DNA of 63,708 nt, the filler included, from Basidiobolus ranarum (taxonomy: Eukaryota): the NCBI GenBank assembly GCA_040143965.1. It is 19 parts of 19 records of this genome, joined end to end, with 100 filler letters (N's around TTAATTAATTAA, not from the genome) between each part and the next. Parts side by side here need not be neighbours in the genome. Positions count along the whole stretch, not along the records: positions 47,068 to 50,318 come from JASJQH010002614.1; 18 more parts are not named here. One strand, 5' to 3'. The notes beneath the pieces are model-generated. The model searched no databases, had not been told where the DNA came from, and worked only from the letters and a program-made list of their open reading frames with translations. This document shows, piece after piece, positions 30,337-61,583 of this stretch. The translations under genes were made by a program, and so were the position numbers. Numbering within the stretch: the stretch's first letter is position 1; each line of letters begins with the position of its first letter.

Positions 30337-31606
30337 ATGGTAAACATTCGCGTACTTGCTTTGGGGTCCCTTCTTGCTATCGTCTTGGCCATGCCACTCG
30401 CTGAAGCTCAGATTGTGGATGTCTCTAACCGCTATATCGTCAAGATCAAGGAAGGTGCTGATTCCAACAAAGGTATGAAGAAATGATAGGAATGACATGA
30501 ATAGGGGTGGAGGTCCGATTGATACTAACATCTTCACAATTATCATTGTAGTCGACCAATTTTTAAAGACTAAACTTGACCAATATAATCGTGGACGCAG
30601 CGGAAACAACTCTCTCAAGAATGAGCTCAAGAACAAGTTCAGCTTGGAAAACTTCAACGCTTACTCTGGTATCCTCAGCCAAGCACTAGTCGGTGAGCTC
30701 AAGACTAATGGTGATGTCGAGTATGTCGAAGCTGAGCAAGTGTTCACTGTCTCTGGTGTTCAGAATAGCCCACCCAGCTGGGGTCTCCCAAGAGTCTCTC
30801 AACGTGCATTGAATGCCAATGCCCCATACAACTACCCAGACTCGGCTGGTGAAGGTGTTGATGTGTACATCATTGATACCGGTATCAGTGTCACTCACTC
30901 TGATTTCGAGGGCAGAGCCACACTTCCAGTCAGCTTCATCAGTGGTGAAGCCACCGAAGATCTCAATGGTCACGGAACTCATGTCTCCGGAACTGTTGGA
31001 GGCGCCCGCTATGGTGTAGCCAAGAAGGTCAAGCTCATTGGTGTCAAGGTACTCAGTGGAAGTGGCAGTGGTACCACCTCAGGGGTCATCTCTGGAGTCA
31101 ACTGGGTAGCCCAGCAAGCCAAGGCCAGCGGTCGCAAGAGTGTTGCCAACATGTCCCTTGGTGGTGGTAACAGTGAGGCTTTGAAGCAAGCTGTCGATGC
31201 TGCAGTCAAGGCTGGAGTGACATTCATTGTCGCCGCTGGTAATGAGAGCCAAGATGCCTGCAATGTCTCACCAGCCAATGCTGGACTAGCATTCGCAGTT
31301 GGAGCTTCCACCATCACTGATGGTGCAGCCAGTTTCAGTAACTACGGCAAGTGTGTCAAGCTCTCAGCACCTGGTCAAGACATCACCTCTGCATGGATTG
31401 GAGGAACATCAGCCACCAAGAAGATCTCTGGTACCAGTATGGCCAGTCCCCATGTTGCTGGTGTTGCCGCTTTGTACCTATCCCAAGGAGGCTTGAACAC
31501 TCCAGCTGAGGTATACTCCGCACTTGTTTCCAAGGCTACCAAGGATTTAATCACTGGATTGAAGGGTACCACTCCTAACCTTTTGGTATTCAACTCAAAC
31601 CAGTAA
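30337..31606 (+). CDS. Secreted proteinase K-like subtilisin (S8A), 2 exons (30337-30472, 30552-31606), 396 aa
   Basis: Signal peptide, I9 propeptide, catalytic triad IIDTG / GHGTH / GTSMASPH, oxyanion AAGN. GT-AG intron. Confidence 0.96.
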
Positions 31607-32452: not shown

Positions 32453-33547
32453 ATGGTAAACATCCGCGTATTTGCTTTGGGGTCTCTTCTTGCTATCGTC
32501 TTGGCCATGCCACTCACTGAAGCCCAGATTGTGGATGTCTCTAACCGCTATATCGTCAAGATCAAGGAAGGTGCAGATTCCAACAAAGGTATGCAGAAAT
32601 GATAGGAATAATATGTATAGGGGTGAAAGTCAGATAGTTTATATATGATGAATTCAAACTAATGCTTTGATATTGCAAATTGTCATTATAGTCGACCTAT
32701 TTCTCAAGACCAAACTTGACCAGTACAACCGTGGACGCAGTGGAAACAACTCCCTAAAAAATGAGCTCAAGAATAAGTTCAGCTTGGAAAACTTCAATGC
32801 TTACTCTGGCATCCTCAGTCAAGCACTAGTCGGTGAGCTCAAGGCTAATGGTGATGTCGAGTATGTCGAAGCTGAACAAGTGTTCACTGTCTCTGGTGTT
32901 CAGAATAGCCCACCCAGCTGGGGTCTCCCAAGAGTCTCTCAACGTGCATTGAATGCCAATGCCCCATACAACTACCCAGACTCGGCTGGTGAAGGTGTTG
33001 ATGTGTACATCATTGATACCGGTATCAGTGTCACTCACTCTGATTTCGAGGGCAGAGCCACACTTCCAGTCAGCTTCATCAGTGGTGAAGCCACCGAAGA
33101 TCTCAATGGTCACGGAACTCATGTCTCCGGAACTGTTGGAGGCGCCCGCTATGGTGTAGCCAAGAAGGTCAAGCTCATTGGTGTCAAGGTACTCAGTGGA
33201 AGTGGCAGTGGTACCACCTCAGGGGTCATCTCTGGAGTCAACTGGGTAGCCCAGCAAGCCAAGGCTAGTGGTCGCAAGAGTGTTGCCAACATGTCCCTTG
33301 GTGGTGGTAACAGTGAGGCTTTGAAGCAAGCTGTCGATGCTGCAGTCAAGGCTGGAGTGACATTCATTGTCGCCGCGGGTAATGAGAGCCAAGATGCCTG
33401 CAATGTCTCACCAGCCAATGCTGGACTAGCATTCGCAGTTGGAGCTTCCACCATCACTGATGGTGCAGCCAGTTTCAGTAACTACGGCAAGTGTGTCAAG
33501 CTCTCAGCACCTGGTCAAGACATCACCTCTGCTTGGATTGGAGGAAC
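32453..33547 (+). CDS. Tandem paralog proteinase K-like subtilisin, 3'-truncated (exons 32453-32588, 32692->33547)
   Basis: Near-identical to 30337-31606. TATA-like ATATAAAT about 60 nt upstream. Confidence 0.95.
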
Positions 33548-34261
33548 NNNNNNNNNNNNNNNNNNNNNNNNNNNNNNNNNNNNNNNNNNNNTTAATTAAT
33601 TAANNNNNNNNNNNNNNNNNNNNNNNNNNNNNNNNNNNNNNNNNNNNGGACATCGGTATCGATTGAGTACAATTCTTTACGCTGTAAATAAAATATGCCA
33701 TTAAATCAGTTTCTGTGTACGGAGATGCTTGCTAACTTACGCCAGTATTAGTATATTTGGGTACATTGCTGATTTGTAAATAGCATGAGTCCGGTTCGAT
33801 TGCGTTTATGCTTAAAATCCCCATTGCATCGTTATATTTCTAAATCTCAATGGACTTTTCCAAGCGTACCAGTGAATATGTCCTCCATTGACAAAACTTA
33901 GGGACTTGTAAGTAGTGCCCCAATCTAGACATCTCAATCCTGGTCTTCCACGTTCAGTTGGATGATGCATTGTGAATAATGGTAAGGTTTTCTCGTGCAA
34001 TATTTGCCAGATAATATACTATACCAGAATTAATATGTTACTGTGTCCTTCTGGATATGGCTGATGACAACATCTCACTCGTAATGTTTCCCATATCTAC
34101 TAATTCCGTGGGAATTCCGCATACGTTTCCTAAGCTGGTTTTCCTTGTGTCAAATAACACGAATTTAGCCGTCCGTTTCTCTCAATTTCCATATTTCTCT
34201 ATTGCATATATCGTGACCTACTGCTGTCTAACGTTTGATCTACCCATTAAAAGTATATAAA

Positions 34262-43714: not shown

Positions 43715-44014
43715 ATGGTCTTGAAAGTGTTTCTTTTGAACTTTGCTCAACTATTGATCTACTACATTAATGAGGGATTAAAATCTCTTCACTTGCACTA
43801 TTGCTGAAAAGGAACACATCTGGTAAATTGATTACTACTTCATCATTACTTAAGTTAGTTTCCGGCATGTTAATGCCTTCCAAAGTGGATAGTGGATTGC
43901 TAGACTGCTCATCAATCAAGTCCCCTGTTCTTGCTGGTTTCTTCCTTTTGTACCAGCAGGCTTTGGCTTGGAAGCCAATTTTTACTTATATTTTGAATGC
44001 TTTTTGAATGGCAT
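43715..44014 (-). mobile_element. 5' part of the accessory ORF of the CACTA-like element
   Basis: Reverse complement of 28273-28560. Confidence 0.7.
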
Positions 44015-44226
44015 TGAAATTTTCAGATGGTAAACTTGGTGTAATGAAATTGCTTAGAAACAGCTTATAATAAACCAAAATTGCCATCCATTACCGGAAA
44101 TATCTTGTAAATCCCCTGATGACTCATCTGTGACACCGTCTCAGAATCAGCTGATGATATTGATGGGCTATACCTAAAATACCACCCTTACGTGGGAGGT
44201 GTTCTTTTTTCTACAATATCCTTCTC

Positions 44227-46000
44227 ATGCCGCAACACAAACGTTTAAAGAAGCCCTGCTATTATTGTCACAAATTCTTGTGCTATGAAAGCCGGAGGCT
44301 TCATAGAAAAAACAATTACAAGCATGGTCACTATACAAAGCCAACAGCTGCACAAAGCCTGGTGTATAACAACAGTAATAAGTGCACTAAATCAACTTTC
44401 ATTTTGCGCACTGAGTCTACTGACTGTACTTTGCCTCAAAGTTCTGGTTACACTGCCTAAAGTCAAGATACCATGGAGTTACCACAGTTATATGACCAGA
44501 ACAATGTAGATAGAAATACAACTTTGGTCAAATCTGTAAGTTCAGACAACTTTGAGGACATGCTGCTAGATATTGACCTCAGTTATTCCAGTACTGATGG
44601 TAATATAGCAGAAGTTGAAGAAGAAGACAATGGATTTGTTACAGACTCTTTGTTATCAGCAAACATTAGTGGAAAACAACTGTCAATAGTATGACTTATA
44701 ATCCTTCAGTAATTAAACTAACTTCATGTCCAAATGGTTGTTTGGCTTTCACAGTGATCTGTAAACCTCAAGTCATGTACTGTTTGCACACAATTGGCAA
44801 TAGCTGAATCAAGTAAATATTGCTCACATATGGCTTACAAATGATTGACTCCCCATCTTAAAGTTTTGATGAAAACACCCTAATATAGATTATTGATCCA
44901 TTACCAAAGCACTCATCATAAAGCTGATGGTATTAGCAATATACTTGACAGATATCACTACCAGAGTCTGAAAAGTTAAGATTTCTTTGAGAACCTGAAT
45001 GATCATGCATTTGCATTGGCTCTTGATGGTTTCTTGCTAATCAAATACCACTTTGGAATGGCTTGCTTGCCAATAATTTTAATTAACTTAAATCTTCATC
45101 CTTCTGAATGGTATAAGAGTCATAATACTTGGATACTATCCATCATATCTCAACCTAAGTCATCAGTGCTTATAGATAGCTTGTTAGAGCCTTTGATTGA
45201 GGAATTTGAATGGTTATCTAATGGGGTTCAGATGGGTGAATATTTTATTGACACTAATATCATAGTATGTATTGGTGACATTCCTGCCATCAGTAAGCTT
45301 GGAACACAATGCACTATCTTTCTGTAGATTTTATTAAATCAATGGAGCCTACTCAATCAGGCACAAGCATGCCTACCATCCATATACAAAACTAAGCGCC
45401 ATGATTTTACCATCAAGAGCCAGGCCAGATTTCAACATGATCACTGATATAAATTCACCAAATAGTCAGTCTAACATCAAACTTGGTATTAGCTGTAAGC
45501 TTAAGATTATATTGTTAAAGGGGATCAGTTGGAGCCAGTGCTAACCATTAGGCACTATGCACTTACTATTCAACAACATTCCAATTCTACTTACTCAGCT
45601 ATACAATGGAAAATTCAATATGAATGAGCAATTTGAGATAGGATAAAAGCTTGAATGGTTAGGGAAAATGCTTGAAAATAATAAGACACCATCATATTTT
45701 ACCAGGACTCCAATCAATATCCACTCATCTAGGCATTATTCAATTTCAAAGACTGGAAGTATTGATTTTGTATATATTCATGTAGAATCTTGAAAAGATT
45801 TCTGCCTGATCAGTTTTGGCAACATTGGGAGTTGTTTGTGGATATTGTTAATACATTTCTAAGAAATCAATTCATATTGGCAGATATCAGGCAGATACAG
45901 CAACTGTGCAAAGACTCCAGAGCATATTAAACTTCCCACAAAGGCCTTTTTCAATGTGCTCATGGGTTTTTACATTGTTTGAGCACAATAATAGCAACAA
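44227..46000 (+). mobile_element. Degenerate CACTA/EnSpm Transposase_21
   Basis: ALDGF…PIILINLNLHPSE…DSLLEPLIEEF…CIGDIPAISKL. Homologous to 26929-28061. Confidence 0.85.
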
Positions 46001-46699
46001 TGCCCAATCCATGGACTCAGAGTAAGTACCACTATTATTTGGACTGATTTGTTTATGTAATAATCTGAATGTATTTCTAGGAAAGCTGCAAGACAGACTT
46101 CATGGTAAGATAGATGGAGATATGCAGTATTATTGTTTTAGCCATGGGGTACTCTATTCAAACAATGACACATCTACTTGTGGCAGGACATTTGGTGACT
46201 GCAAGTCAGAGGGATATGTTGGCTGAATTCTTTATGGAAATTTGCCAAAATCCAAGAGCTTATTCTCATTGTGAATGGTAACAAGAGTCAGCTATTTGCC
46301 AAGTGTCAGTGCTATTTGAAATTTCCAATGTTTATCAATTTTACCACCTTTAGTTTGTTGGTAAAGCATATTAATGTTGTTGAGTCATGTCTGATTAGGC
46401 AAGAATGTGCATATGTAGAGACTGAACACAGCAAGATTCTTGTATTTTTTGATTCTCATTATGGCTGGAATACAAAGGCTAAAATATCTAAATAAAGGCA
46501 TTCATATTGATTCCAATTCCTAAAGCAGTAAACCCATTAATTTGCAATTTGAAAATTATATTTGGCTAATATTGCTTGAAATTAATAGTGCATGCCAAAT
46601 ATATGGATCAATACTTTAATATGTATAAATACTATTGTAATTCCATGAAGAAACTGCCATCACACCATCATAATTTGTGGCAAAATGCAAGCGAGTAAA

Positions 46700-46967
46700 C
46701 TCCATTGATTTGACAAAATCTACAGCAAGATAGTGCATTGTGCCCACAAAAACCTCAAAGTTTGCAGATGGCAGGAGAGTCTCCAATACATACAATGATT
46801 TTAGCTTCAAGAAAATGTCCACCCATCTGAACTCCATCAGACAACCATTCAAATTCCACAATCAAAGGCTCCATGAAGCTATCTATAAGCAATGGTGATT
46901 TAGGCCCAGATATGATGGATAGTATCAAAGTATTATGACTCTTATACCATTCAGAAGGAGGAAAATT
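46700..46967 (-). mobile_element. Additional inverted Transposase_21 fragment
   Basis: LPPSEWYKSHN…SGPKSP…DSFMEPLIVEF, matching 26929-27060. Confidence 0.75.
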
Positions 46968-47067: not shown

Positions 47068-47182
47068 GTTACTGCTTAGATAGGCAGAAACTTCCTTTTT
47101 AGAGACCTGTTACTGCTTAGATAGGCAGAAACTTCCTTTTTAGAGACCTGTTACGGGTTAGATAGGCAGAAACTTCCTTTTC
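47068..47182. repeat. Tandem 41-bp repeat, about 2.8 copies (GTTACTGCTTAGATAGGCAGAAACTTCCTTTTTAGAGACCT)
   Basis: Units start at 47068, 47109 and 47150, at the contig edge. Confidence 0.92.
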
Positions 47183-47740
47183 ATGTAGGTCCTTTATCTT
47201 ATGATCTGTTTTAGAATATCCCAGTTTGGAGTCTAGCCATAGGATTATTATTATTAGAAGCATGTTTATCAAACCTTTACCACCAACACTTGTGGTACAC
47301 TCTAACTATGGACAGAAGGTAAGATCTGTCACATGTGTGCCTTATTTTGAGCAATCAGACATTTATCAACATTTGGCTTGTTCCATGCAGCTACCGGTTG
47401 TCAGTTCTACCGAATCCATCGATTAGGCAACCTAGATTCCCATCTCTACTATCAAGAATATAGTCAGTGAACCACCATCTCCAATCACAAATATATATGG
47501 TTTGTGACGTGGGTTCAAATTCTCAAGGTTTAATTGTGCAACTTCATATGGAACTAACCTACCTAAAGGCACTTTGTAAATACGGTGGCATCTGATTTGT
47601 ACTCGTGGCTTGTATAGCCCGAATTCAATTATTGTATCTACGTATTTTGGGGCTAGTTATAAATTATACATACTAAGAGTACGTTGAATGCATGGAGTTC
47701 TATAAAAGCCTGGTTAAAGGTTTTCAAAATCATTATCAAA

Positions 47741-48741
47741 ATGTTCAGACATTTGTTATTATTTTGCATATTATACGTCAATGTGGTGCTAACTCTGGGT
47801 GCTTGGAATGAGATTCGCATGAAGGAGGCTTCGGATTTGTTTCAAGAGCCTCGTATGGAAAGTCCAAGTTCCATAAGAATAGAAAGCGGGACTATTGTAA
47901 AAGCTTTGTGTCAAACTTTAGATACAAAAAGTCTTGCTCGAGCTTCAAATGATAGTACTCCATTAGGACGAAGGTATGTGATCAATTCAATATTTACAAG
48001 GCCATTCTAATAACTAGGCGTAGTGTATGGACTCAAGTTATATTCAAAGAGTATACAGGCTATGTACCTTATGAGCGAATGGACCGGACAGAAAGCTGGC
48101 TACCAGGTGCCCCCTGGTGCTCCTGCAGAAAGGGACAAGGCTTGCTTTGTATAGATGATAATCAAAAGTTACAGCATCAGGAGGCAGAGCAATTTCTGAA
48201 TTCTCATAATATTCTAACCAGTTGCACTAACAATCCAGACGTTGCATGCCCTTCCTTTACTGGTATCAGAAATGAAACAATCGAGGGCCTCGTTAATTTT
48301 ATTGCTATAAGCAACTGTACAGGAGTTCAAGTGACTGGTGGAACTGAGGTATCGGATGCTGAGTCCTATTACTCTCATAAGCTTGGATTCAGAATCGACT
48401 TTGCATCTAGCTCATGCATCGATAATTACATCAAATTAAACTTTCATTATGTTGGTAATCGGAAATATGGCAGTCCTGATAAGCTCTATGTTGCATGTAG
48501 TGGGAATACACTTGCCCGGAAACAAGATCATTGGGAAATGAGTGGGTACATCAATGGAGGAAGTAGAGTTGTACTACCTAATGAAACCACGTGCTACGTT
48601 CCAAATAGAACTCCTACTTCTAGTATCCCAAATGTAACTCCTACTTCTAGTATCCCAAATGGAACTTCTACTTCTAGTATCACTTACTTGATCCCATTGC
48701 TAATACTATTTGTAAATTCATACTTCCACGAATACATGTGA
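47741..48741 (+). CDS. Secreted, probably GPI-anchored protein: SH3b-like domain + Hedgehog/DD-peptidase(M15)-like zinc domain + S/T stalk; exons 47741-47973, 48024-48741 (about 316 aa)
   Basis: TATAAAA at 47701 and a signal peptide. A GTATGT…TAG intron joins the frames. Motifs C..VW…GYVP and VTGGTE…SHKLGFRID…DHWE. Three PNxT(P/S)TSSI repeats and a hydrophobic tail. Confidence 0.75.
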
Positions 48742-49186
48742 TGAATAAAGAGCAATTACGCCTCTAACTAGCATTGGATTGTGTACCAATTCTGTCTCGA
48801 AGAATCCGTTTAGAGGTCTATCTATTAGTCAGGTTGTTGTAAACATTTGGATCTTTCCGGAAATAAACCTATGTGTAATCTAATTAAGGTGTTTTACATT
48901 ACTGTTAGTCCCATTTGAAGTGACACTATACCAGGAAAAGTAAAACGTTGTGTATCCTTTTACCAACAGAGATCTTGTTCTTCTCTAGAAGCATCCTTTG
49001 TCACGTCTTTTCGCAGCATCTTTTGGTAAACGGATTTAGCGTAAGATTGTGACCAAAGTGCAGTGTCTCACTTGATACAGGTATCTACCGTCAATATGTT
49101 CACAACGTCCATCTTTATCAATCCAGATGGGAGACCCATAAATCGGTATAAATATATCAGACACCTCTCTCCGAGGCTGTCCACTA

Positions 49187-50318
49187 ATGGTATATCATAC
49201 TTCTTGTAACGTTCTTACTTACAACGGGCAACAGGAGCTTGCGAGATGTCTGGTGCCAATCGGAACCATAACTATGGATGAGAAATGGGTCTGGATCTCC
49301 ACTACAGTGGTTCCCATAGCCAGAACTATACTTGTTACTGTAACATCATTGGCTATATGGCACTTGTGGTGGTGGAGCAGATACAGTTCTAGGGAAAACC
49401 AGAGTCACCATGGTAGTAGTTGGGCAATTGGAACTACAATGACACATATGTCAGGAGTCAGTACATCTATAAAGTCATTGCAGCGTGTTGCTAAGTATGG
49501 GATTGGAAAGGTAACGCCTACGTTACTGCTCTTACTAGCTATCACCGGCTTGATTATACCTTTGGCAAGCATCTACTGGGCTTCCCATGTATTTCAAGTA
49601 GGAGAAGTCAATTATGAATATGAGAAGTTCCATCAAGCAAAGTCAAACCTGATGGAAAGTATTAAGAACAGAACTGCTCTGGTATCATCCTTTGGGAAGG
49701 TAGCATATAGTGAAAAACCGTTGCTCACGTCAGATGTATTTAACGATGCCTCAACAGGAATGGGATCAGCAGTAATTATTTCACCAAAAGGAGCACCTTC
49801 GTGGTGGAAAGTCGATATTCTACCAAAAACTAAGGAATGCTATGTGCATTCAGTTGCTGTTCTATCAAGTAGCACGAATGTAGAATTTTCGGTAGATTAT
49901 GGAGATTCTGGTAACGACAAAGTAGCCGAATCATTGACTAGTCGTTGCACCCGAGTCAAGCCTTCAGTCAGCTTTCTTACTGCTCATAGTTACGTGAATA
50001 AGAACTCTACCATTGCTTCGTCTGAACTCCAACATATAACAAACACAAATCTTCCTCAACAGTGGTGTCAATTAAGCTATACCTGTGCCATTGATACAAG
50101 GGTTTCATACGGTAGTGTAAGTATAAATACCGAACAAAAAATGGTGTGGCAGAAAATTTCGGAAACGAATTCGAACGCAGACCTAAATAGTCTATTGAGT
50201 CAATTCCAAACTCTGGCACAGCTTGATAACCAGAAGCTGAATGTATGGCTTGAGACTGCGGACAACTGGAAAGAAAAAGCTATCAATATAATCAAGGAGG
50301 CAGCAACCATCAAATATG
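49187..50318 (+). CDS. Hypothetical membrane protein, 3'-truncated
   Basis: Intronless ORF of about 377 codons with two hydrophobic segments. TATAAA at about 49147. Confidence 0.7.
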
Positions 50319-50418: not shown

Positions 50419-51740
50419 GGTAGACTTTGAATATTAGAGGCAACTTATGATAGTGCTTTAGTTACTTTATTCTTAAGAAAATATGGTAACTTATATAGTA
50501 TAGAAGTAAATCAATTGTTTGAGATATTCAGAAGATTGTGTAATAAGATATAATAGATAGTAGGGATAATAAGACATACTTGTTATATAGATATAGAAAT
50601 ATTCCTAATTGGAATATAGGGGCTATAGATATGTTGTTTTCTTTTTCTGATATGCATATCACAACTAAAGTTAACCAAGATGTTGAATAAAGATTAATTA
50701 TCCAACACCTCCCCTTAATTCTTATTTATTTACTTAATTAACTTCACAAAGCTTGAAGTTTTGAGTGGTTTTGTGAGTATAGCTGCAAGAATTTTTCAGT
50801 TTTACAATAAACAAAGTTCACTTCTTTGTCTTGAACTTTCTCTTATGTCAATATGCCTCATCCTTGAGTGATGTTCAGAATTTTTGGTGATCTGAATTCA
50901 ACCAGTATTCTCTTGATATATTAAGGTATGATTCACTTGATCATATCCTATTTCCTTGAGAAGACTCCTTAGCCATAAAACTTCTTGAATAGCCATAGAG
51001 CTTGCCATATATTCTGCTTCTGTATTTGAAAATATGACAGTTTGCTGTTTCTTATTAATCCAGCTTATTGGTCCATCAACTAGCTCAAGCACATATCCAG
51101 TTCTGGACTCACAATCTTCTGTATTGTTAACCTAGGCTGCATCAGTGTAACTTTCCAAAATGAGTGATATGCTATATTGCTTACTAAGTTGAGTTCCATG
51201 ATATCTTGTTCCTTTCAGATAGTATATTATCTGTTTCACAGCTATCCAATGTTCCATTGCAGGATTTTCCATATATTTGCTTATTATGCTTAGAGTAACA
51301 GCAATATCAGACCTAGTACCAGTTGTTGCATATATAAGACTTCCAACCATATTATAGTAAGGAATATGTTTTATTATTTCAATATGTTTAGAAGTTTTTG
51401 GTTCCATATCATTAGTGAGTTTTAGCATATGGACTTGAAGCTATTTATATTCTGATATAGAGAATCTGTTTAAAACATCTTCAATTTACTTTTCTTGTAT
51501 AATACAGAGTTTTCCAATATTGAAACTTTGATATAAGTGCATTCCAAGACACTATGTTAGTGATCCAATATTTTGCTTTTCAAACTTGGTAGATAGCTAG
51601 GTCTTAGTTTGTTTCATCAGATTTGAGCAATTACTACTTATTATGATGTCCTCAACATAGAGAGCAACTATAACTTGGTGACTTTGATGGTTTTGAATAT
51701 ATTCAGTGATCAGCATTAACCTAATACAGCTATGCAATCT
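50419..51740 (-). mobile_element. Degenerate copia RT-RNase H, PPT and family-B 3' LTR (50707-50419)
   Basis: PYYNMVGSLIY…TRSDIA, YTDAA, SNTEAEYMA. GGGGAGG precedes TGTTGGA. Confidence 0.9.
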
Positions 51741-51924
51741 GCAAAACCAATAACCTTGTAGGATCATTCTACCATGTAAAATTATTGGATTCTAAACTGC
51801 AAAGCACTAATCATTATGGTGTCTAATAAATTAGGAATAGACTATATAGGAAAGCTATATGAAATTAATCTCAGAAATATATATATTACTGTTTTCTATT
51901 TCATGGTGTAATACTTGGTGTTGC

Positions 51925-57116: not shown

Positions 57117-58092
57117 AAACAGTGATCATCTCAGGAAGAGGGTTCTTGGGTCCAATCTTACCTGAAGGAACCCAGTCCAACATAATCTTGACCTTGATAC
57201 CAACAACACCTTGACGAAGAAGAACGTGACGAACGGCAGTGGTGATGTAATCACGGACAGGTTGTCCGGAGTGGATCATGAAACCGTCAGAGAACTTCAT
57301 AGCCTTAGCACGGGCAGCACGAAGCTTACCAGAGATAACAACTTCGCAACCCTTAGCACCGGACTCCATAGCAAAACGAAGAACAGAGTAAGCGGCACGA
57401 CGAACGGCAAGACCAGCGATCAACTTGTAACGTACAGATTCGCATTGAGCAATAGCACAGAGACCACGGTTAGCAACACGTTCAGCGTAAAGTTCAACAG
57501 TGTTTTCAGGGAAGTTGAAACGTTTTTGAACAACTGAAGTCAATTCACGAATACGACGTCCTTTCTCTCCAAGAACATCTTGGGTGCGAGTGGCACGGAT
57601 AATGATCTCGGTACGAGCGGGGGTAACACGGACCTCAACACCGGCGTAACCCTCTTCGGCAAGTTCACGGGTGAAGAACTCATTGAGTTCGGCATAGAAA
57701 ACGCCATCAGCGACGAACTGTGTAAAAGTAATGAGGTCAGAACATATATAGTAGAAATGATGGGATTTTAAAAAGAAGCAAGATGGTCGCGGTTCATCAG
57801 TACTAAAACTAAGGTACGTGCATTATGCCACATTCCCGAAGGCAGGCATTCAAACAAGAGGTGTCAGAAATGCTATAGTATCATCAGTTGTAACCGCTTC
57901 CATAATCTTCAAATGTCCAGATTCATCCATCAAGTTTTAACAAAACCATCCATCAAGAATACACCATCACTGTTCATGAGGAGCCGACTGTTTAGTCGAC
58001 TGACGGTTTACTTCTGGACATTTTGAGCTATGTATTCTGTTATATGTGTAAATACAAGTTACCTTTCTCTTCTTAGAGATCTGAGCAGCCAT
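57117..58092 (-). CDS. RPS3: 40S ribosomal protein S3 (uS3), exons 58092-58063 and 57717->57117 (3'-truncated)
   Basis: [24 protein letters not shown]…GLCAIAQ…[19 protein letters not shown]. 345-nt GT-AG intron. Confidence 0.98.
57789..57897 (-). ncRNA. Candidate intronic box C/D snoRNA
   Basis: Terminal stem GCGGTT/AACCGC, C box TGATGA (57886-57881), D' CTGA (57867-57864), D box CTGA (57800-57797). Sits in a long ribosomal-protein intron. Confidence 0.7.
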
Positions 58093-60463: not shown

Positions 60464-61583
60464 CATTCCGGTGCAAGACAGAGACTCGGCTCCCTCCCCG
60501 AAATATTCCACAATATGACCAGTACCGCCCTATTATATATAGTAGTTGATTTCCGGTTAGTACAGTATAGCGCATTGGTGTCAAATCTGTAGTCGTACCC
60601 GAACTGTAAGTTGTCCAGCCAAATGTAAAATAACATCCTTGGGACTAGTCCAAGCATTAAGCTGGCCGTTTAACTTCACGCCAATAACCTTGGGTGCTTT
60701 CAATTCCCATGGAATATCTGCCATAGCATCTACTGCATCAGCACCTCCCACGCCAATTGCTAACATTCCTAATCCACCAGCATTTGGAGTGTGGGAATCA
60801 GTACCCAACATTAAAATACCTGGAGCAGCATAGTTTTCTAGCACGATCTGGTGGATAATTCCACTTCCAGGTCTCCAAAATTCAATGCCATACTTCTTTG
60901 CAGCACTCTCCAGAAAATCAAAGATTTCTTTGTTGGTAACTAAAGCACTTTCCACGTCCTTATCGGCCCCTTGGAAAGCTTCAATTAAATGATCGCAATG
61001 AATGGAACTGGGTACCGCAGTAGTCTTCATTCCAGAGAGCATGAATTGTAATATAGCCATTTGGGCGGAAGCATCTTATAAGGTATAGGTTGAGTATATC
61101 TGTTAAAATAATTACATTTCTAAAAAGCATTTTTTCAGTTACCTTGCATTGCCACACGGTCTACAAGATAAGAAAGAATCAGTAAGCTAGCTTTGGTATG
61201 AGCATTTCAAGCAACTACTAAGAACTAACCTGGCTTGAGTTTTAGATATGTTTCTCCCTTCTTAGGAAGACCTTCACTTGGATCGTTCAAATGAGAGTAC
61301 AGAATTTTTTCCGCCAAAGTAAGCTTCTGGCCATCAGAAGTCTTTCTAACTTGTTCCAAATTTTTGGTTAATCTATCATAGGCAGGTATCAGACGAGAAC
61401 AGTCTTTAGGAGTAGGTACAGTGACATGAGTTGCCAAAGTTCTGATGCTCTAGGAAAGTGCAAATAAAATGAACAGGTTTAGAGTCACATAACTTAGGTA
61501 CTCAGCATATAGGCGGTACACATAAATTCAAAGAGACTTACGCTTCCTAAAGGATTTCTAAGACTTAACAGCTTTGTTACCAT
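60464..61583 (-). CDS. ACO2: Mitochondrial ACO2-type aconitase/homocitrate dehydratase, 5' part; exons 61583-61542, 61449-61230, 61160-61143, 61074-60599, 60529->60464
   Basis: [61 protein letters not shown] and HLAG…TVR are ACO2-like. Confidence 0.9.

Follow-up and report, generated by a model that had tools for sequence, protein, structure and literature searches.

An intact two-exon gene of Basidiobolus ranarum encodes a probable secreted protein in which a predicted SH3b-type domain is followed by a domain with the predicted fold of Hedgehog proteins and DD-peptidases. We propose that this protein is a surface-anchored binder of peptidoglycan that does not cut its ligand, a reading of the predicted SH3b and zinc-peptidase-fold domains to which we give about an even chance. 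Because two near-invariant residues of the peptidase-fold family are swapped, the protein likely holds bacteria or wall fragments and does not cleave them. A disarmed binder is in our view the likelier reading, ahead of an antibacterial hydrolase.

Gene model, predicted secretion and probable surface anchor

The window, i.e. the whole analysed stretch of 63,708 nucleotides, consists of ~19 pieces of ~3.3 kb joined by linkers of the form N44-TTAATTAATTAA-N44. The gene's own contig (3251 bp) occupies window positions 47068-50318, and since the pieces are joined by N linkers, nothing outside this interval is a true neighbour of the gene. On the + strand, exon 1 (47741-47973) begins with the ATG at 47741 and encodes residues 1-77 and two bases of codon 78; exon 2 (48024-48741, +) ends with the stop codon at 48739-48741. 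The predicted 50-nt GT-AG intron between them (47974-48023, +) shows a donor GTATGT at 47974, a branch-like CTAAT at 48007 and an acceptor TAG ending at 48023. The two open reading frames and the single intron of the original prediction were found in place, and the spliced product of 316 amino acids is identical to the annotated B. ranarum hypothetical protein P0001. Use of a second acceptor, in frame at 48017, would lengthen the product by two residues; the junction alignment with the paralogue P0156, itself a gene model, is gap-free for acceptor 48023 only. Reading through without splicing leads to an in-frame stop at 48008-48010, and as the predicted SH3 fold covers both exons, an intact SH3 domain would require removal of the intron. 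A count of short-intron patterns was rejected as evidence for the intron, with 6 observed versus 13.9 in shuffles, i.e. at chance level.

A putative TATA-like box, TATAAAA, lies at 47701-47707 (+), 33 nt upstream of the ATG. The motif is present as predicted, although matches of this type number 13 in the whole window versus 28 expected from shuffles, so that its role as a promoter element is suggestive only. A possible polyadenylation signal, AATAAA (48744-48749, +), follows directly after the stop codon.

Predicted signals for secretion and anchoring frame the protein on both sides. Hydropathy delineates two hydrophobic stretches, residues 1-21 and 295-312. The first contains a predicted signal peptide of about residues 1-18 (47741-47794, +; cleavage site by eye), and a signal-like start is found at the same place in P0002, P0004 and P0156. 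The second (48673-48726, +) resembles a GPI signal, and similar tails are present in P0002 and P0004; the C-terminus ends in NSYFHEYM, the last 7 residues being partly polar. Three 27-bp repeats (48601-48681, +; 92% matches) encode a Ser/Thr-rich stalk with N-glycosylation sequons, of which the 316-aa protein has seven. The pattern of signal peptide, small-residue site, spacer and hydrophobic tail recurs by hydropathy in 3/3 full-length proteins, i.e. in P0001 and two B. meristosporus paralogues. Signal peptide, repeats and hydrophobic C-terminus are therefore present as originally described, and secretion with a surface anchor is probable as judged from sequence.

The close family comprises eight Basidiobolus records: P0001 and a fragment come from B. 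ranarum, and B. meristosporus contributes the other six, of which three share a 102-kb contig and two a 15.7-kb contig. P0001 is 43-54% identical to its full-length paralogues, and ten cysteines stand in the same columns in 3/3 full-length Basidiobolus proteins. Five of the eight records are partial gene models and three are full length, which could point to gene decay or to an erroneous gene model. We consider this very improbable: the frame is open and uninterrupted, paralogue identity, cysteines, signal and tail are conserved, eight records exist in two species, and the predicted SH3 fold spans the intron. The gene is intact, has two exons and is real.

Several other features were observed along the window. 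The contig starts with a 41-bp tandem repeat of 2.8 copies (47068-47181). It also carries a long ORF (49142-50318, +) interrupted by the contig end, whose Atlas features resemble uncharacterised fungal membrane proteins (0.97), with DUF3176 in 23% of the second cluster; no connection of this ORF to the SH3b/peptidase-fold gene was seen. On another single piece, two long ORFs (30479-31603 and 32652-33596, both +) have a near-identical stretch in common, explained either by duplication in tandem in the recent past or by a repeat in the assembly. The flanking pieces (43774-46967 and 50898-51791) contain broken ORFs that look transposon-like by eye, with a stretch duplicated at 44980-45327 and 46755-46967. 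ORFs of other pieces at 57117-57822 (-) and 60584-61075 (-) resemble what we take, by eye, to be ribosomal protein S3 and aconitase.

Two predicted domains and an unnamed family

The SH3b-type domain covers residues ~22-110 (47804-48120, +) with the intron inside. In the model of the full-length protein (pLDDT 69.4), the predicted SH3 fold comprises residues 22-106 in structural matches and so spans the intron. The three best matches are 4krt, a phage endolysin (Z 8.6), 6bim, Trichomonas NlpC1 (Z 8.4), and 8b2s, the wall-binding domain of a Trichophaea GH24 muramidase (Z 8.4, rmsd 2.4, 66 aligned, 23% identity), with rmsd values of 1.6-2.4 over 63-66 aligned residues; the SH3-type first domain of the original prediction is thus recovered as an SH3b fold in the predicted model. 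By their titles, wall-acting or surface proteins from bacteria, phages or eukaryotes account for 20 of the 21 best structural matches, each through an SH3b-type domain, whereas eukaryotic SH3 domains match at Z about 6, ~2 Z units below the wall-binding SH3b domains. Atlas clusters of SH3_3 were matched at TM 0.63-0.73, and Pfam SH3_3 matches the paralogue P0156 with an E-value of 4.4e-4, below the cut-off. C57-C110 is the predicted disulfide of the domain. A PDB match of the Basidiobolus profile to the yeast Pex13 SH3 domain (E~1) was not counted as evidence. When run against 282 proteins and the ORFs of 80 loci, the Basidiobolus SH3 profile returned its 4 source proteins only, and no bacterial protein with the same SH3 domain was found in this set. 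Because the profile matched no further protein, the fusion may have arisen in the fungus.

Among the closest published architectures is that of the fungal CWBD of Moroz et al. (2023, PMC10394673), with which the Basidiobolus protein shares the order of signal peptide, SH3-like domain and wall-enzyme-type domain. The offsets of the alignment make C57 and C110 the counterparts of CWBD Cys33 and Cys72, whereas its Cys9-Cys53 pair is absent here and L33 stands at Cys9. The peptide-binding Arg10 of the CWBD corresponds to F34, and to Tyr in 3/3 paralogues, in a register taken from the alignment start; with Phe34 or Tyr at this position, the ligand of the Basidiobolus SH3b domain may differ. An LAS-fold partner is absent from the CWBD partners listed in the Fig. 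5 legend of the same paper (GH24, GH73, GH184, amidase, C40 and M23), and the Basidiobolus protein differs further from the CWBD proteins as described there in its GPI-like tail and substituted active site.

The second domain, residues ~125-256 (48163-48558, +), adopts the Hedgehog/DD-peptidase (LAS) fold in a model with a mean pLDDT of 88.6. Foldseek matches this model to Shh with E 0.014 (prob 0.97), and 11 of the 12 top rows of the structural search have the LAS fold (best Z 6.2, rmsd 4.6, 107 aligned), comprising Hedgehog N-domains, VldE, MepA, LdcB, VanXY, Streptomyces zinc DD-peptidase and VanX. These scores are moderate but consistent, and the models bear out the fold proposed from the sequence pattern. 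At the sequence level, identity to known LAS proteins is 10-20%, with no Pfam or PDB sequence match: P0001 has no Pfam match at E<=10 and no NCBIfam or PHROGs family, the family profile found no match among PDB sequences, and profile comparison with 9 phage M15/M15C endolysins was not significant (hhalign probability 0.1-0.3%).

The highest-scoring structural matches are Hedgehog domains (Z 6.2-6.4), which bind proteins through their zinc cleft, and a surface protein with a ligand other than peptidoglycan, i.e. a metal-binding adhesin or a protein-binding module, has to be weighed here. Many catalytic residues of Shh are dispensable for signalling and catalytic residues are lost in Drosophila Hh (PMC6027127), and the replaced SH3b arginine and the eukaryotic SH3 matches at Z about 6 would fit such a protein as well. 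We consider this reading distinctly unlikely, as the wall-binding SH3b domains score higher than eukaryotic SH3 domains by the margin given above, both domains independently point to bacterial walls, and no result suggests an alternative ligand.

The homology search confirms that the second domain belongs to the small GGTExGH...SHxxGxKxD...HWD family named in the original prediction. It is a direct homologue of this unnamed family (GGTExGH...SHxNGYKxD...ExxHWD; non-Basidiobolus E-values down to 5e-17), with two cysteine pairs in common. The family comprises 482 representatives at E<=0.001 and at least 1196 proteins by profile, and identity outside Basidiobolus is 28-45% among the best 150 representatives. 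It has no Pfam, NCBIfam, PHROG or PDB sequence match, and two family members compared with annotated phage genomes gave no match. Named members are mostly Actinobacteria, with other bacteria represented too; eukaryotic members come from Ceratobasidium, Verticillium, Owenia, Liolophura, Macrostomum and Rotaria.

Our Pfam scan covered 120 of the 150 representatives and close matches listed; 117 of the 120 are family members outside Basidiobolus, counted as such by name or by lack of a name. Most of the 120 proteins have no further Pfam domain; partners are T4SS_pilin (15), PG_binding_1 (3), and SH3_3, WXG100, eCIS_core, PAN_4 and Peptidase_C39 (one each). T4SS_pilin is fused to an intact peptidase-like domain in P0024, P0034, P0044, P0052 and 11 more. 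The pilin, WXG100 and eCIS_core fusions suggest that these members may be used as antibacterial effectors. P0075 and P0118 have an additional C-terminal domain that, by eye, we take to resemble a lytic transglycosylase; Pfam returned no lytic transglycosylase match for it. In P0011 from Owenia fusiformis, an intact family domain follows cysteine-rich repeats with a spacing like that of rusticalin repeats, and a weak beta-defensin match (Pfam E 0.37) is seen. Among the proteins examined, the Basidiobolus clade alone carries this SH3b domain and the GPI-like tail, and a metagenome scan for this clade found no relative among 151 pattern matches.

The predicted active site

We compared the Basidiobolus sequences with 269 non-Basidiobolus relatives, a set of best matches and a few cluster members that is weighted to Actinobacteria. 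The relatives carry H189 (269 of 269), H196 (268), K201 (265), D203 (267), E244 (260), H247 (261) and D249 (260), whereas the core Basidiobolus sequences have D189, H196, R201, D203, K244 and E249 in 5/5, together with E186 and R224 (also 5/5). The full set H189/H196/D203/E244/H247 is kept in 258 of 265 fully covered relatives and in 0/7 Basidiobolus sequences. D189 (48355-48357, +) replaces the histidine that is invariant in the relatives, and its column is secure since the spacing around it is gap-free in this gene. Neighbouring G188, kept in 266/269 relatives, is lost in the Basidiobolus gene. K244 (48520-48522, +) replaces the glutamate of 260/269 relatives. Position 247 reads H, R, H, Y, Y, R and R across the 7 Basidiobolus sequences (His in 2/7). 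Two outlier Basidiobolus sequences have T and G at 189 and R and R at 244, and have lost H196 and the acid at 249, as if the clade were drifting towards full loss.

The metal site itself appears to be retained. H196 (48376-48378, +) and D203 (48397-48399, +) are the predicted first and second ligands of an H-x6-D motif, according to the family and profile alignments; they align to Ply500 H80 and D87 in a local profile alignment that is not itself significant. ShhN, VldE MT3, MepA, VanX, VanXY, LdcB, Ply500, LysB4 and the Streptomyces zinc DD-peptidase share this H-x6-D motif, whereas the Basidiobolus domain differs from these LAS proteins in a predicted third ligand that is an acid, not His, and in a Lys at the candidate base position.

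For the third ligand, the sequence offers H247-W-E249 and two registers. E249 (48535-48537, +; Asp in 260/269 relatives) is residue 131 of the second-domain model. In the structural alignments, the ligand H375 of VldE falls on E249 in 5/5 rows, the ligand His of Shh falls within one residue of E249 in 16/17 rows, and LysB4 H132 falls on model residue 131 as well. The exceptional Shh row, 1vhh, ends in a low-confidence tail and would give H247. This register is read from range ends, not from residue pairs, and assumes a gap-free last strand. The Shh ligand His is H183 in mouse (PMC6027127). Human numbering is one lower. The covariation of 204-250 (z 5.7) fits the E249 register, but it is not independent of the model, and the D-x-x-H spacing of Ply500 favours H247 instead. 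On balance, we put the likelihood that E249 is the third metal ligand at about four in five; a triad with H247 (48529-48531, +), which is probably the first residue of the H-x-H equivalent, was judged less likely from the structural registers. Thus H196, D203 and H247 of the originally proposed H/D/H triad are all present, and H247 is probably not the third ligand. By the E249 column, the whole unnamed family has a predicted Asp as third ligand, with H-W-D replacing H-x-H; an Asp in this role would be unusual for LAS enzymes.

Two residues with predicted catalytic roles are replaced. Position 244 is the candidate base in either register, a role that follows from fold and spacing: 9/9 phage endolysins have an acid three residues before the ligand His, and here this position holds K244 in place of a water-activating Glu, Asp or His. 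Of the two candidates for the cationic stabilising residue, the family's invariant His is D189 here, and the family Lys is kept as R201; the GH His of the unnamed family presumably has its counterpart in Shh His135, taken to be the residue that stabilises the intermediate. In the E249 register, E-x-[NDS]-H-W-D of the family is spaced like H370-x-D372-H373-x-H375 of VldE. VldE H370A, D372A and H373A are inactive (PMC11667670), and LysB4 D129A (the base) and R50Q (the stabilising Arg) abolish activity (PMC6354061). Since the registers point to Glu249, the predicted metal site survives and the predicted water-activating residues do not. All catalytic roles in the parent family are read from fold and spacing.

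The original prediction inferred an active hydrolase from the retention of three ligands, and the exchange of the GH His for Asp and of the Glu for Lys in 5/5 core sequences speaks against it. A surface peptidoglycan hydrolase could nevertheless be built on this site, with zinc held by H196, D203 and E249, D189 as base, and K244 or R201 as stabilising residue, i.e. as a mirror image of the family arrangement. The predicted triad and D189, K244, R201, E186 and R224 are all conserved in 5/5 core sequences, fungal wall hydrolases usually combine SH3b with a catalytic domain (PMC10394673, Fig. 5 legend), and the base of LAS enzymes varies between Glu, Asp and His (PMC11667670, PMC6027127 and PMC6354061). 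Against such a hydrolase, the H189 swap occurs in 0/269 relatives and only a few lack E244, position 247 varies between H, Y and R, Gly188 is lost too, and two further paralogues have lost predicted ligands. We regard an active enzyme as unlikely, though it is the main rival of the binder reading.

The preferred reading, a non-cutting binder, has several points against it: (i) the predicted metal triad H196/D203/E249 is kept in 5/5 core sequences, (ii) the His-to-Asp and Glu-to-Lys exchanges are exactly reciprocal in charge, so that the site could be rewired and still active, (iii) H247 is kept in this gene, (iv) in most family members no wall-binding partner domain was recognised, (v) Phe34 stands where the fungal wall-binding domain has its peptide-binding Arg10, (vi) the catalytic roles come from fold and spacing, and profile similarity to M15C endolysins is not significant, and (vii) the GPI-like tail, judged by eye, ends in partly polar residues.

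Origin and proposed function

We computed quick trees of 85 and 42 rows chosen from the matches at hand, omitting P0156 as a fragment. The seven Basidiobolus domains form one clade (support 99*); its stem is long and no sister group is supported. Dikarya members are placed near Actinobacteria (support 94, unstarred). Basidiobolus and Dikarya as one clade is not rejected (p-AU 0.415). For the bacterial derivation put forward originally, and a transfer from Actinobacteria in particular, the trees show the Basidiobolus clade without supported nesting among bacteria; a bacterial origin of the peptidase-fold domain is plausible from the spread of the family.

Comparable domains exist in other eukaryotes. 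Rusticalin-like proteins (PMC6339383) and a Neocallimastix GH25-M15 protein (PMC7379824) are secreted and carry a Hedgehog/DD-peptidase or M15 domain; a bacterial origin is proposed for these domains, and rusticalin itself is predicted to be inactive. By description, they have cysteine-rich repeats where Basidiobolus has SH3b, and their domains match Pfam M15 models or Ply500, whereas the Basidiobolus domain does not. Both SH3-like domains attached to fungal wall hydrolases and fungal M15 domains have been published before. Our literature search, which covered few subscription journals, returned no description of the unnamed family or of the SH3b fusion; the transfer-candidate tables of PMC7466969 and of bioRxiv 10.1101/2021.12.02.471044 may contain the B. 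meristosporus paralogues as bare entries. The fusion of SH3b and LAS-fold domains is apparently undescribed.

In the mechanism that we propose, the protein would stand on a glycosylated stalk at the cell surface, held by a GPI anchor. The SH3b domain would take hold of stem peptides together with the retained cleft, which comprises the metal triad, E186, R201 and R224. Since the candidate base position 244 is Lys and Asp replaces the invariant His at 189, no water would be activated, and the ligand would therefore be held rather than cut. In gut or litter, the likely use of such a surface would be to capture bacteria or pieces of their walls, and separate secreted hydrolases could digest the captured material.

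Amphibians and reptiles harbour Basidiobolus among their gut bacteria, and its genes include many of bacterial type (PMC7466969). How fungi recognise and handle bacteria at their own surface is poorly known, and a disarmed wall peptidase turned surface binder would offer a concrete recognition molecule that can be put to the test. Animals possess non-catalytic peptidoglycan-recognition proteins, in which a wall-hydrolase fold has lost catalysis and binds peptidoglycan; the analogy concerns the mode of action only, since their fold differs (type 2 amidase) and no homology is claimed. A more far-reaching view, which we hold as a tentative possibility, is that Basidiobolus has built its own peptidoglycan-recognition family by joining a disarmed Hedgehog-like peptidase to SH3b, tethering or sensing gut bacteria; such a receptor family would be a fungal parallel to the animal proteins on an unrelated fold. 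Beyond Basidiobolus, the gene draws attention to a Hedgehog-like family that is large and unnamed and whose predicted metal site is His-Asp-Asp; the Basidiobolus clade provides natural substitutions to work out the chemistry of this family. If the protein were active after all, the swap of His and Glu to Asp and Lys would represent an unusual rewiring of the LAS site.
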